From a virus, in IMG/VR virus record IMGVR_UViG_3300005002_000001: a DNA stretch of 64,000 bases; one strand, written 5' to 3'. The notes under the pieces were generated by a model. It saw only the letters and a list, made by a program, of their open reading frames with translations, was not told the origin of the DNA and did no database searches. Numbering within the stretch: the first letter of the stretch is position 1; each line of letters opens with the position of its first letter. The translations under genes and the position numbers were made by a program. This document shows positions 20,986-28,409 of this stretch, piece by piece.

Positions 20986-21267
20986 ATGAAGATCACGCTG
21001 GGAGACCTCAAGACCGTCATCCAAGAAGCCTTGGTAGAGACGAGAAACGAGTACGTCGTTCGCGGTGGAAGCGAGATTCTTGTTCGTCGCGAGGATGAAC
21101 CTAAGAATGCCTGGCGCTGGGAGACCTTTCCGAAGGTCCTCTATTTTTCCCCGTCCGAATTGGTACGCAAGCCGAGAGGGCCGACGGACTTACAGAATTA
21201 CGTCTTCAAACGGGATGGCATGCTATATGCCGTCGACGCTCGCCGATTCTATCTGATGCCCGGTTAA
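20986..21267 (+). CDS. protein with shared N-terminal leader MKITLGDLKTVIQEAL
   Basis: N-terminal 16 aa conserved with 21264-21587, 21584-22534 and 27966-28409. Confidence 0.55.
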   Translation: MKITLGDLKTVIQEALVETRNEYVVRGGSEILVRREDEPKNAWRWETFPKVLYFSPSELVRKPRGPTDLQNYVFKRDGMLYAVDARRFYLMPG

Positions 21268-21587
21268 AACGGGATCTTCATCGAAGGCTTCGGGGTCCCG
21301 TGGTAAAACTCGCCGCCGTCTAGACGATCGGTGACTTCGTCAGCTACGTCGAGCATACGTTCTTCGAGCTCTCGGCCGGCCATAGCGACCTGGACGTGCC
21401 ATTCTTTTTCTCCCCCGCGAGCCATAGTCGGATCGTGCGGATCGAAACGATTTTTCATATCGATGATCCAGCTATCGACCATCTTTTCGATGGCCATCTC
21501 GATCGACGGGTGAGGAGCCAGCGTGCTTTCGTCGAGTGCTTCTTGAATGAGGTTCCTCAGATCTTTGATTCGAATCTTCATCGTCAC
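21264..21587 (-). CDS. protein with shared N-terminal leader (MT)MKIRIKDLRNLIQEAL
   Basis: track ORF; coupled to upstream minus-strand gene. Confidence 0.55.
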   Translation of the reverse strand: MTMKIRIKDLRNLIQEALDESTLAPHPSIEMAIEKMVDSWIIDMKNRFDPHDPTMARGGEKEWHVQVAMAGRELEERMLDVADEVTDRLDGGEFYHGTPKPSMKIPF

Positions 21588-22534
21588 TTTCGCTCGATTC
21601 TGCCGGACCTAAAAGCTTTGATAAGCTCTTGCGCGCCGCGGTCGTCCAAAGTAATAGATACGCCATCCTTGCCGATCGACGAACCCGGGCTTAGAGTGAT
21701 GCTCGGCACAGAGGGAGATCGATCCCTGTCTTTGAAAGATTTGGGCTCTTCGCCCCGATAACTACACACTATGCCTTCGAAGCCCGGGCCTATCGAGACG
21801 GGCAGTTTTTTGGACCACCCGGTGCCCGAAGGATTGCCGACTTGAATGCCTTCGACCTCGAGCGCGCCCAGGGCCTTTTGAGCCTCGACCTGCGTGTTGC
21901 CATCAGAAGCGTAGACGTATTCATAAGCGGGCGTATCGCCCTTCGCTTTCATCTCGTGCAGGCTGACTGTGCCCTTGACAGTGGGAGCGCCCGTTCCAAA
22001 TTTAAGCATGACTCCTCTTCCCAGGCGTTTGGGCTCGTCTAGGACTTCAGTGACCTGGGCCTGATCCATCAAGATTTCCATGTCTAGGATGTTGCCTCGA
22101 CGAGGCTCGACGCCCTTCCAATAATCCTCGATCAGGCTAGTGTCGTAGCCGTAATCGTTATCTTTCCAGGAATTTCGGCCGATCTGATCGATCAGTTTGG
22201 AGTCGGTGACGTGCATTTTGCCGATCGGTTTGACGGCATACAGGAAACCCTTGCCGATGAACCTCGATCGAGGATGAAAAGAAGCGAAGATGCAGTTGAA
22301 TCGAGAAGGCAGGTTGGGAAAGTCTCTTTTGCGGACATCCTCCATCTCTCTTTCGTATTGCTTTTTCTGCTGCCAATGCTGTCCCGTCGCTGGATCGACT
22401 TGAGCTGTCAGCACGTCTCCCACTTTGAATCGTTGTGGAGATCGATGATATAGGGTCGCGCCGGCGGAGACCGTGTATTCGAAGAGAAGAGCCTCCCGAA
22501 TCAGCCTTCTAAGTTCTCCCAGCCTTATCCGCAT
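21584..22534 (-). CDS. 316-aa protein with shared N-terminal leader MRIRLGELRRLIREAL
   Basis: track ORF; remainder of protein without recognisable family. Confidence 0.6.
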   Translation of the reverse strand: MRIRLGELRRLIREALLFEYTVSAGATLYHRSPQRFKVGDVLTAQVDPATGQHWQQKKQYEREMEDVRKRDFPNLPSRFNCIFASFHPRSRFIGKGFLYAVKPIGKMHVTDSKLIDQIGRNSWKDNDYGYDTSLIEDYWKGVEPRRGNILDMEILMDQAQVTEVLDEPKRLGRGVMLKFGTGAPTVKGTVSLHEMKAKGDTPAYEYVYASDGNTQVEAQKALGALEVEGIQVGNPSGTGWSKKLPVSIGPGFEGIVCSYRGEEPKSFKDRDRSPSVPSITLSPGSSIGKDGVSITLDDRGAQELIKAFRSGRIERK

Positions 22535-22551
22535 GGCTTTAAATATGCTCC
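22535..22551 (-). promoter_or_regulatory. ATATTTAAAGCC motif immediately 5' of ATG (minus strand)
   Basis: plus-strand catggctttaaatatgc; the 17-mer ATATTTAAAGCCATGGC is identical to the one at ~44941. Confidence 0.4.
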
Positions 22552-22558
22552 GAAACTC

Positions 22559-22594
22559 GTGTAATCGACAACGAAACCGTGATAGGATGGTACC
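22559..22594 (+). promoter_or_regulatory. conserved promoter TGTAATC-N16-TAGGAT-N7-ATG
   Basis: cgtgtaatcgacaacgaaaccgtgataggatggtaccATG. Confidence 0.55.
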
Positions 22595-26544: not shown

Positions 26545-26559
26545 TCTATAATCATACCA
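26524..26559 (+). promoter_or_regulatory. promoter variant TGTAATG-N15-TATAAT-N8-ATG
   Basis: gtgtgtaatggaaagtctcgttagtctataatcataccaATG. Confidence 0.45.
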
Positions 26560-26814
26560 ATGGCGGCCGTGACCGTCGTATGGTCGAAGGGCTGGTTTTT
26601 AGCAGGCTCGCTAACGAAACCGATAGAGCCCGATGCAGATCTAAAAGACCCGGACGAGGTGGAGACCGCGTGGGGTTACGACAGCTACAGTATTCGCCGG
26701 CTTTCTAGCTTACCCGACCTCAAGTACGAGGTCCTCCTTAAAGACGAGGACGACGAGTCAGTCGCGCAGCAATTGCTCGACGACTTACTAGACTCCCTGG
26801 AGACACAAAGATGA
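26560..26814 (+). CDS. hypothetical acidic protein
   Basis: track ORF; ATGA overlap with next. Confidence 0.5.
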   Translation: MAAVTVVWSKGWFLAGSLTKPIEPDADLKDPDEVETAWGYDSYSIRRLSSLPDLKYEVLLKDEDDESVAQQLLDDLLDSLETQR

Positions 26815-27140
26815 GCAGGAGCGTGCAACGTTCTCATTGTAAGCATTCGTGTTGGATGTGTGATCCCGGTAAACAGGAGCCCGGGGTCCCCAAACCGAGC
26901 GACCGACGACGTATGCAAGACGACATGAAAGAATGGGAACGAGAACCCAAGGACGTGCCTCGTTGCGCCTGCGGCGCTCCTGCCGACTGGTATTACGCTC
27001 CGACAAACGGCGGAGACTACTGCGACGCGTGCGTCCCTCGAGGATGCTCGTGCAATGTCGATTGCGACGGCAACGAGATTCTAGACGAAGGCGGCCGGCA
27101 ATTGCCGTGCTGCGAATATATGGAGTACGCTGACAAATGA
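26811..27140 (+). CDS. cysteine-rich (zinc-finger-like) protein
   Basis: 16 Cys including CKHSCWMCDPG, CACGAP, CDACVPRGCSCNVDCDG, CCEY. Confidence 0.5.
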   Translation: MSRSVQRSHCKHSCWMCDPGKQEPGVPKPSDRRRMQDDMKEWEREPKDVPRCACGAPADWYYAPTNGGDYCDACVPRGCSCNVDCDGNEILDEGGRQLPCCEYMEYADK

Positions 27141-27961
27141 AGATCTGGATTCCCAAATGCGGCGACGAAGTCAAACTCGATCAGGACTGGACGTTCACTC
27201 TCCATCCCGAATACCGGAACGCTGACTTTTGCGGCGCCGTCGCCGGCGGAGCCAAACCCGGTCCGCGATATCACGCGACCAAGAATTACCAGCAGCAGGA
27301 GGTCACGTTTCCTGCTGGGTGCCGCCTCGTCTTCGATCGGATCTACATCCGGCAGGACAGCGGCGACTACACGTCCGTCACCTTCATGATCAAACAGCAT
27401 CCCAAGCACGAGTACATCGGGGAGCGTTTTTGGGTCAAGTTGCCCGACGCCAACAAGATCGAAGCGACGTTCCTGTCGGAAAACAACCCGGTGGGCGGAT
27501 TCGCCAAAGCGAAGTACAAGGCCGAAGCCAAAGCTGCGATCGATCCGGCGTTCGCGCAAGCCGCCATCGATCGCAAACGAGCCAAAGAAGAGCTCGAGGC
27601 GGCGCGCGGAGCGTGCTCGGAAGAAGTCGAGTCGAACAATGCCGGACCGGTAGCGGCGCACGTCGACAAGATCATTCGAGATGCCGTGAATCACATCAAC
27701 GGCAGCAAGACGTCTTATTTTTGGGGCGGGGGCGGCGCCTCGGCATCGCAGGTGCGATCGATCATGATTCAAGGAACGTACTGGCGCCGGGGAGGTAAGG
27801 ATGCTCCCGCGTGGGTCATCGATTCCACCAAGAAAAACGATCAAGGTCAGACGATCCGAAACATTCGCTTTTGGCACAAAGGTCGAAAGTTCGACGGCTT
27901 CACCGTGACATCAAAAGGCACGGAGATCTGCGGTATCATTCCGCTCGTCTATCCTACTTAA
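27137..27961 (+). CDS. hypothetical protein
   Basis: track ORF; ATGA overlap. Confidence 0.5.
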   Translation: MKIWIPKCGDEVKLDQDWTFTLHPEYRNADFCGAVAGGAKPGPRYHATKNYQQQEVTFPAGCRLVFDRIYIRQDSGDYTSVTFMIKQHPKHEYIGERFWVKLPDANKIEATFLSENNPVGGFAKAKYKAEAKAAIDPAFAQAAIDRKRAKEELEAARGACSEEVESNNAGPVAAHVDKIIRDAVNHINGSKTSYFWGGGGASASQVRSIMIQGTYWRRGGKDAPAWVIDSTKKNDQGQTIRNIRFWHKGRKFDGFTVTSKGTEICGIIPLVYPT

Positions 27962-27965
27962 AGGG

Positions 27966-28409
27966 ATGAAGACGTTTCGTATCAAGCTGGGAGACCTCCG
28001 AAAGTTCATTCGAGAAGTCTACGAATGCGGCGACATGATGCCTGAGGCCGGAGGAGACATCTACGGCGCGGGATCGGCTGGCCCGGGAGAATCGTCCGGA
28101 AAAACGATGGCTGAAACCGATTCAGGACCGTCTTGGCCGCATCCGTGGCCCAAACCCAAAAATTCAGAAATGATAAAGGCTCATCGAGCTGTGATGGATT
28201 ATCTGGGTCCTGAGCATGTCGGAGACCTGGTCAACGCAAAATACGTCCTGGACCCTCGAGTCAAGGGAGTCGTCGGTATCCGTCTCGAAGACGGCGGGCA
28301 GCACGCCGGCACGACGATAGATTTTGTCGTCTACAACTGCGACAGAGGTTGCAGCGCCGACGATGTCGATGAAGTTCAGTTCACATCTTGGCCCCCGACC
28401 GTGTACTGA
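27966..28409 (+). CDS. protein with shared N-terminal leader MKTFRIKLGDLRKFIREVY
   Basis: fourth member of the N-terminal leader family; upstream acttaaagggATG resembles the ATATTTAAAGCC motif. Confidence 0.5.
   Translation: MKTFRIKLGDLRKFIREVYECGDMMPEAGGDIYGAGSAGPGESSGKTMAETDSGPSWPHPWPKPKNSEMIKAHRAVMDYLGPEHVGDLVNAKYVLDPRVKGVVGIRLEDGGQHAGTTIDFVVYNCDRGCSADDVDEVQFTSWPPTVY

Follow-up and report, generated by a model that had tools for sequence, protein, structure and literature searches.

In bacteriophage T4 the internal proteins IPI, IPII and IPIII carry a capsid-targeting sequence (CTS) of 10 residues, MKTYQEFIAE, of which the N-terminal part is responsible for targeting and residues 8 and 10 are needed for processing (PMC9026906, PMC3012670). 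The T4 prohead protease gp21 cuts after Glu in the motif L/I-x-E; it removes the propeptides of Alt, an ADP-ribosyltransferase that is packaged and injected, and gp22, gp67 and gp68 are cut into fragments that exit the head (PMC9026906). CTS-like sequences have been noted in T-even relatives (PMC9026906). Here we describe a leader of 16 residues at or close to the N-terminus of four otherwise unrelated proteins of an uncultured virus (IMG/VR record IMGVR_UViG_3300005002_000001), from which a stretch of 64,000 nucleotides, called the window below, was analysed. The four genes lie between positions 20986 and 28409. On comparative grounds, the leader is probably a capsid-targeting propeptide of the T4 type, belonging to a new and much larger sequence family; we hold this with moderate confidence.

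One leader on four proteins

Four open reading frames (ORFs) of the window begin with a match to M-[KR]-I-x-h-x-x-L-[RK]-x-h-I-[RQ]-E-[AV]-[LY], and all four leaders end in I-[QR]-E. Beyond about residue 16 the proteins, here termed the cargo, are unrelated, and the cargo of the four forms four separate BLASTP clusters. Gene A (20986..21267, plus strand, 93 amino acids (aa)) carries the leader MKITLGDLKTVIQEAL as its codons 1-16 (20986-21033), followed by cargo without an assigned function. Gene B (21264..21581, minus strand) encodes 105 aa from the ATG at 21581, with the leader MKIRIKDLRNLIQEAL at 21534-21581; the GTG at 21587, which was the start given by the ORF tool, lies two codons 5' of this ATG. 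Gene C (21584..22534, minus strand, 316 aa) has the leader MRIRLGELRRLIREAL at 22487-22534, followed by a domain of ADP-ribosyltransferase fold and a C-terminal β-rich domain. In gene D (27966..28409, plus strand, 147 aa) the leader (27966-28022) reads MKT-FRIKLGDLRKFIREVY, and is thus shifted by the three residues MKT that precede it; its cargo again has no assigned function. Gene B starts 2 nucleotides (nt) downstream of the stop codon of gene C, and the two are probably co-transcribed.

A preliminary description of this DNA had reported the shared N-terminal leader on four unrelated proteins, and all four ORFs are indeed found at the coordinates that it gave, with the starts that it quoted. 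It had also proposed a search of the rest of the genome for further leader genes. For the window this has been done: a loose regular expression run over all six frames gave six matches, four of them being the N-termini of A, B, C and D, and a relaxed scan of every possible ORF N-terminus gave no more credible cases in the 64 kb.

The conservation lies in the peptide. When the window leaders are compared in pairs, identical residues are encoded by different codons in 6/9, 6/8, 8/9, 4/6 and 6/9 cases, the remaining pair, A/D, having 1/7. Over 47 leaders, the entropy of the third codon position is 1.7-2.0 bits at most leader positions, including the invariant L8. Because identical residues are mostly encoded by different codons, selection acts on the leader peptide, and judged by the codons its similarity is not the result of recent DNA duplication, which the preliminary description had named as a finding that would overturn its proposal.

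The leader is basic, with a net charge of +2 to +4, except in A where the net charge is 0. In an AlphaFold model of C the leader forms a detached helix of low confidence (residues 5-18), with a disordered stretch at residues 13-19; the cut site predicted below would therefore be accessible. Two other kinds of N-terminal peptide were considered and rejected. A Sec or Tat signal peptide was taken to require a hydrophobic core of at least 10 residues after a basic N-region, or a twin-arginine motif; read directly, all four leaders lack a hydrophobic core and have a charged residue at every 2-4 positions. A leader of the type found in ribosomally synthesised and post-translationally modified peptides is ruled out by the size of the cargo, which is 50-450 aa.

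PHROG and Pfam searches with the four window proteins and with ten leader proteins from other loci gave no functional name, except for a weak match of C to DUF2441. Nucleotide and protein searches of isolated phages, using the region, C, a tail-fibre-like protein, a leader protein from another locus (L015) and a 21-residue consensus leader, gave no matches; leaders this short fall below the sensitivity of BLAST. A search of protein databases with the 42-residue N-termini of leader proteins produced six candidates and no match, and a search of IMG/VR by peptide patterns found no relatives of gene C.

Leader family, putative protease site and cargo

DNA patterns back-translated from the leader were used to retrieve 27 loci from IMG/VR and 77 loci from metagenome contigs; the set is counted as 103 loci. 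A profile hidden Markov model of the leader has 261 matches in the approximately 0.8 Mb of these loci, with a start codon at the expected Met in 255/261 and exactly so in 243. In this small sample the leader marks 192 distinct proteins of 22-450 aa (median 120 aa), nearly all without known function, whose cargo forms 111 unrelated BLASTP clusters, 80 of these being singletons. Over half of the distinct leader proteins do not fit the search pattern, and were found by way of a neighbouring gene that does. The 109 such pattern-free leaders have the consensus M-[KR]-I-[TRK]-h-x-[QE]-L-[RK]-x-[IL]-I-[RK]-E-[AEVS]-h. Their most constrained positions are L8 (108/109), [RK]9 (108/109), I12 (101/109, the others being V or L), [RK]13 (96/109) and E14 (92/109), and past position 16 the conservation collapses. 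Several leader genes at one locus are common: there are twelve within about 5 kb in L012, four consecutive ones in L053, and five in 21 kb in L034. No canonical leader was seen in the 50 kb examined of the huge phage LR756511, which has a T4-type head module and provides the best match of a HisRS-like gene of the window.

Two small cargo families recur behind the leader, EEQGWVPGRWYPGTGEPV at 10 loci and GPSGPGVTADPTDVKGFYPYE..G.DIHGYWYKSPG.. at 7, the loci including L024, L014, L008, L010 and L015. The two are frequently adjacent, and neither has a match in Pfam, PHROGs or isolated phages. A gene for a small EamA-like membrane protein is also a recurrent neighbour, directly adjoining leader genes in the window (20533-20973, plus strand) and in three unrelated leader-bearing loci (L013 2886-3317, L015 3511-3924 and L034 11864-12271).

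A number of related loci have leader genes within a T4-type head module. On one strand of L021, three leader ORFs stand between two groups of genes: before them come a gp21-like protease and an ORF of 125 aa, and after them an ORF of 170 aa, an acidic scaffold-like protein of 527 aa (2284-3867) and a Gp23 capsid protein (Pfam Gp23, E 9e-75). The same upstream arrangement of terminase, portal, gp21-like protease and two small ORFs, followed by two or three leader genes, is found in L021, L054 and L067: L067 carries it upstream to the terminase and portal, L054 repeats it, and L021 is the only one of the three contigs to reach as far as the scaffold-like and capsid genes. In L088 the portal gene is followed by a leader-like ORF, the protease, and then several ORFs with the leader or with a shorter form, MIKLKxLIKE; in L168 four leader genes stand in tandem immediately after the capsid gene. 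The small ORFs of L088 downstream of the gp21-like protease (280-2206, minus strand) start MIKLKKLIKE, MIKLKNLIKE and MIKLKHLLTE, which is about the length of the T4 CTS, and in three ORFs, two of them with the short leader, the motif WDRKFGEPLPTL follows.

A T4-type head module, with gp20 portal, gp21-type protease and gp23-type capsid protein, is also present in an isolate, Flavobacterium phage immuto (vB_FspM_immuto, host Flavobacterium sp. LMO8), which has diverged leader-like N-termini on gp156, gp175, gp176, gp190 and gp198 (examples being MKKSQLRQIIKEALD, MKKSQLREIIRKEL, MKKSELVKLIKEEL, MKKSQIVKAVQEVLEE and MKLDLLKKLIKEAV). All five genes map to the structural half (81-125 kb) of the genome, gp198 being between the portal and the protease, and no leader-like N-termini were found in the 80-kb early half. 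The literature searched yielded no virion proteomics of immuto.

The C-terminal end of the leader, I12-[RK]13-E14, fits the L/I-x-E motif of gp21. The gp23-type capsid proteins of the same phage group have LLENQAAQ-[VLI]-L-[RK]-E^[SAQ] in 77/80 cases, the caret marking the site of the cut, and this h-L-[RK]-E site aligns with the cleavage site L-T-E65^A of T4 gp23. The T4 gp23 sequence served as probe and in the alignment, and the capsid identification, which comes from the Pfam match given above, is independent of it. Leaders and capsid site have in common the hydrophobic-x-Glu and also a basic P2 residue; within the one locus L021, the capsid site is Q-I-I-R-E^G and the leader ends L-I-K-E^A. 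Among the leader-bearing relatives L021, L054, L067, L088, L168 and immuto, a gp21-family protease and a gp23-type capsid protein are found. The likeness of the leader end to the capsid site is the strongest single argument for the prediction that the C-terminal end of the leader is a substrate of the prohead protease.

Further support comes from two relatives of the window, a syntenic contig of 240,834 bp from NCBI (L034; JAXOUH010011742.1, GCA_034680565.1) and a 45-kb contig with 92-96% nucleotide identity to the window (L069). In L069 the promoter and leader of C stand in frame with the cargo of B, the switch being at codons E14-A15, and neither the cargo of C nor the leader of B is present; read from its sequence, this fusion is a natural exchange of cassettes at the leader boundary. 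A clean accessory-gene indel adjoins the exchange. When L069 1-2121 is compared with window 20694-24228, a 2OG-Fe(II) oxygenase gene (window 22595-23227) is absent from L069 together with its own promoter. L034 has an ortholog of B with the leader MRIRLADLRKLVKEAL, and an ortholog of D that keeps the offset leader, MKTYRIKLGNLRKLIREIY. The exact window proteins occur only on short contigs.

Cargo C is the one for which a function can be suggested. Its domain of ADP-ribosyltransferase fold (DUF2441 / BC2332-like) lies at 22025..22477 on the minus strand, at about residues 20-170. DUF2441 belongs to the Pfam ART clan, and the site of 2AUA resembles that of diphtheria-toxin-type enzymes. C scores 19.8 bits against Pfam DUF2441, where the cut-off is 25, and its profile match to the 2AUA sequence (E 0.011) covers one motif only. 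The AlphaFold model, made with 12 homologs, has a mean pLDDT of 80. Examination of the domain found the ADP-ribosyltransferase fold, the activity being a prediction. H30, Y99 and E153, candidate catalytic residues, are invariant in the C homologs and suggest that C belongs to the diphtheria-toxin-like class. Based on the model and the sequence together, cargo C is a putative ADP-ribosyltransferase. Twelve homologs of C were found, and the ten full-length close ones, on ten other contigs, keep the N-terminal leader; the neighbourhoods of the other C orthologs consist of accessory genes only. The same phage encodes an ADP-ribosylglycohydrolase (33790-34728, plus strand, E 9e-29), an eraser of ADP-ribosylation.

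Upstream motifs and other genes of the window

Only three copies of the exact 8-mer ATATTTAA are present in the window, all of them 4-5 nt before an ATG: at 20973..20980 (plus strand), 5 nt upstream of A; at 22539..22546 (minus strand), 4 nt upstream of C; and at 44946..44953 (minus strand), 4 nt upstream of gene 44597-44941 (minus strand), the last gene of a baseplate / tail-fibre-like cluster. A variant, ACTTAAAG, lies at 27956..27963 (plus strand), 2 nt upstream of D, whose L034 ortholog has AATTAAAGGG-ATG. The 15 nt ATATTTAAAGCCATG upstream of gene 44597-44941 are identical to those upstream of C, and the consensus ATAYTTAA(A/G)NCC-ATG is conserved ahead of the leader genes in L034 and L069, where the flanking DNA is only about 80-92% identical. 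The motif is a candidate promoter or initiation element common to the leader genes, and its distribution suggests that they share a regulatory class with the structural-cluster gene 44597-44941; we infer that this may be a late class.

Many other genes of the window have instead GTGTAATC-N16-TAGGAT/TATAAT about 6 nt before the ATG (9 matches, where 3.2 are expected), as at 22559-22588, 26523-26552, 41582-41611 and 42738-42767, and no Shine-Dalgarno sequences precede these genes. Because the motif is so near the ATG, with no Shine-Dalgarno sequence, leaderless mRNAs are suggested for a large part of the genes of this phage. The region shows no enrichment of sigma-70-type promoters or intrinsic terminators.

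At the nucleotide level no isolated phage matches the window. Its genes include those for a T4-type RNA ligase 1, an endonuclease VII and the HisRS-like protein, whose best matches are in a 595-kb uncultured phage, Caulobacter jumbo phages and T4-like coliphages, and a minus-strand cluster (44.6-64 kb) starts with homologs of the immuto baseplate wedge protein gp158 (E 8e-12) and of gp159 (E 1.5e-9) in the same order as in immuto. These T4-type genes, the immuto homologs and the relatives of the window place it in a large myovirus of a distant-T4, immuto-like assemblage, the link to the leader-bearing group being only through the immuto-like baseplate genes. An endonuclease VII / HNH-type gene (62999-63604, minus strand, PHROG E 4e-24), with a local guanine plus cytosine (GC) content of about 37-44%, lies between the gp158 and gp159 homologs, which are adjacent in immuto, and may be a mobile nuclease insertion.

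The same cluster contains two pairs of neighbouring large proteins on the minus strand (44946-46124 with 46133-47389, and 50401-53310 with 53314-56193), without PHROG or Pfam matches. The N-terminus MPKYRGRVDC is common to one pair and ..PR[LI]E[VI]R..D...YP...RTGD to the other, and the pairs seem to be tandem paralogs, perhaps encoding alternative tail fibres with a common attachment end. On the plus strand, a Thg1-type tRNA-His guanylyltransferase (34736-35503, E 1e-24), the truncated HisRS-like gene (25676-26281) and the T4 Rnl1-type RNA ligase (42774-44027) look like a set for the repair or maintenance of tRNA-His. The GC content falls from 61-65% at the left end (1-8000) to 44-50% at the right end (50000-64000), and the cumulative GC skew shows a steady climb that sets in at about 45 kb, the point at which the long minus-strand structural cluster starts.

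A homolog of the eukaryotic major vault protein (MVP), of 882 aa, is encoded at 15937-18585 (plus strand), with matches to Pfam MVP_shoulder (E 8e-30), Vault repeat and SPFH; its ortholog of 894 aa is syntenic in L034 (14462-17146). The window also has a second SPFH/Band_7 gene at 31167-32102.

Alternative explanations and known systems

As a capsid-targeting propeptide, the leader would work as follows. The N-terminal helix M-K-I-x-h-x-x-L-R-x-h-I would bind the scaffolding core during prohead assembly, so that the protein carrying it is enclosed. The gp21-family prohead protease would then cut after I-[RK]-E (positions 12-14), at the same kind of site as in maturation of the capsid protein, and so free the cargo inside the head. 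The cargo would be ejected with the DNA into the next host and act early there, as may be the case for cargo C, the putative ADP-ribosyltransferase analogous to T4 Alt. As the leader is self-contained, cassettes of cargo could be exchanged by recombination at its boundary. The preliminary description had proposed a targeting or packaging module on unrelated cargo. The portable N-terminal module holds good, with its N-terminal anatomy, its selection at protein level, its more than 100 cargo families, its structural-module context, its motif match and the in-frame swap, and of the three roles that it had named, the capsid-targeting one gains comparative support from the head-module context, the protease motif, the cargo of ADP-ribosyltransferase fold and the in-frame cargo swap. 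The conceivable role in vaults, also raised there, fares badly: the MVP homolog is confined to the lineage of the window and the leader is found on more than 100 other contigs.

A number of points weigh against the capsid-targeting role. Core binding, cleavage, packaging and injection of the leader proteins are all predictions from sequence. Most of the loci were retrieved with a pattern derived from the leader, and the counts therefore carry an ascertainment bias. E14 is substituted in 17/109 leaders (16%), and P1' is Glu in 34/109, which the protease may or may not accept. The homologs of A in L069 and L034 are longer, at 192-194 aa, and have the leader-like segment internally (EDIALIKSMISEVLNETRDDYIVRGG). 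The head module of the window phage was not reached, and a 10-kb walk past the window start on the 240-kb relative gave small early-like ORFs only. The preliminary description had called the leader amphipathic, a feature that does not stand up: its helical hydrophobic moment (0.33-0.55) is equalled by 12-32% of shuffles. In an independent sample chosen by capsid protein only, N-terminal leader genes lie within 10 kb in just 9/80 loci, so that the leader is restricted to a subset of the phage group and is not obligatorily in the head module. Lastly, two to four leader genes directly follow the tail sheath gene in L053, L071, L091 and L104, and the leader-like gene of immuto gp156 precedes baseplate genes. 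The small share of capsid loci with a leader gene, the positions beside tail sheath and baseplate genes, and the prediction of the leader as a free helix would also suit an uncleaved docking or assembly helix that tethers diverse proteins to one common partner, which might be a chaperone, a part of the tail or baseplate, or some other hub. We consider this unlikely, as it leaves unexplained both the sharp conservation ending in h-I-[RK]-E, followed by its loss, and the match to the tetrapeptide of the capsid maturation site, and enzyme-like cargo such as the ADP-ribosyltransferase fold is unexpected for tail components. Slightly less likely again is that the leader proteins are accessory proteins of the prohead core or scaffold that are degraded or expelled at maturation like T4 gp67 and gp68, and are not delivered effectors. 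The position between protease and scaffold in L021, L067 and L088 is that of the small core-protein genes of T4-type phages, many of the cargoes are short and acidic, and the fragments of gp22, gp67 and gp68 that leave the T4 head are a precedent. This explanation has the targeting and cleavage steps in common with the capsid-targeting propeptide. It sits poorly with the extreme diversity of cargo (the many clusters and singletons, and the twelve leader genes in 5 kb of L012), with the enzyme fold in C, and with the position of the window leader genes in an accessory-gene region far from the structural genes; on these three grounds a variable repertoire of effectors fits better than a conserved structural role.

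In eukaryotes, vaults contain an ADP-ribosyltransferase, PARP4. The MVP homolog lies at a distance of 2.4 kb from the leader genes, keeps synteny with them in both known relatives, the 240-kb contig L034 among them, and shares its phage with cargo C, which has the fold of PARP4; the leader might then be a sorting signal for a vault-like MVP shell encoded by the phage. More specifically, the phage could build such a shell in the infected cell, with the leader also loading proteins including C, as a viral counterpart of the vault-PARP4 pair. The sorting signal is very improbable and so, to a like degree, is this fuller version of it: in about 1 Mb of leader loci the MVP homolog is seen only in the window, its duplicate contig L003 and L034; immuto has the diverged leader-like proteins, but the 150 kb examined of its 160 kb hold no MVP homolog; and elsewhere the leader genes are embedded in capsid and tail modules. 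The similarity might alternatively reside in the nucleic acid, as a 5' element of leaderless mRNAs acting in translation initiation, as a recombination hotspot, or as a remnant of duplication. The ATAYTTAA motif 2-5 nt before the ATG without a Shine-Dalgarno sequence, which suggests leaderless mRNAs, and the recombination junction inside leader-coding DNA would agree with it. We give this very little credence, as third codon positions are near saturation at most positions where amino acids are conserved, the residues common to the window leaders are mainly encoded by different codons, this one peptide turns up in phages that differ greatly in base composition and also in the sequence upstream of it, and no Rfam family matches the region; the recombination at the leader is better seen as a result of the shared module.

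If the leader is a capsid-targeting propeptide, a signature of 16 residues would identify packaged and probably injected proteins from sequence, across many uncultured T4-related and jumbo phages. The leader proteins, including the putative ADP-ribosyltransferase, would then be candidate anti-defence and host-takeover effectors, being the first phage molecules to meet the defences of the host. The capsid-targeting principle of T4, documented mainly in T-even phages, would extend to distant relatives, and the leader would become the second natural tag with which phage heads could be loaded with foreign proteins. That principle, with CTS and gp21 cleavage, is textbook T4 biology; for the 16-residue family, or for its occurrence in jumbo environmental phages and distant relatives of T4, no description was found in the literature, within incomplete coverage.

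Encapsulins provide one comparison, in that a short terminal peptide, the cargo-loading peptide, directs unrelated cargo into a shell of HK97 fold. The leader is likewise a short terminal peptide common to unrelated cargo, whereas most loading peptides stand at the C-terminus; they are not cleaved, and they are encoded beside the shell gene in a cellular operon. The leader was rejected as a peptide of this kind, since the genes of HK97 type found near leader genes encode gp23 homologs and have terminase, portal and protease genes beside them. The likeness of C to T4 Alt is that of an ADP-ribosyltransferase-fold enzyme with an N-terminal propeptide bearing a site of prohead-protease type. Alt is of the R-S-E class, whereas C is DUF2441 / BC2332-like, and there is no sequence similarity between the two.

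The closest parallel is the T4 CTS itself. In both cases a short peptide ending in hydrophobic-x-Glu forms the very N-terminus of proteins of one phage that are otherwise unrelated and evolve fast, and the phage group of the leader has genes for a gp21-type protease, a gp22-like scaffold and a gp23-type capsid protein, with hypervariable cargo. In sequence, the two share only the M-K start and the I-x-E end. The leader has 16 residues and the CTS 10, the leader is basic and the CTS acidic, and the P2 residue of the leader is R or K. With so little shared, and with length and charge both different, the leader is taken as a distinct sequence family. Its carriers are far-T4, immuto-like and jumbo environmental phages and not T-even phages, its packaging and cleavage being predicted, and its repertoire is far larger, with 111 cargo clusters and up to 12 genes at one locus. 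Many of the proteins inside the heads of jumbo phages, as with the head and ejection proteins of phiKZ and SPN3US, likewise have N-terminal propeptides, which a diverged gp21-type protease cleaves off behind Glu (PMC9026906). What those propeptides have in common is a short x-E motif, with no conserved leader described in the sources compared, whereas here the whole 16 residues are conserved across cargo and across phages.

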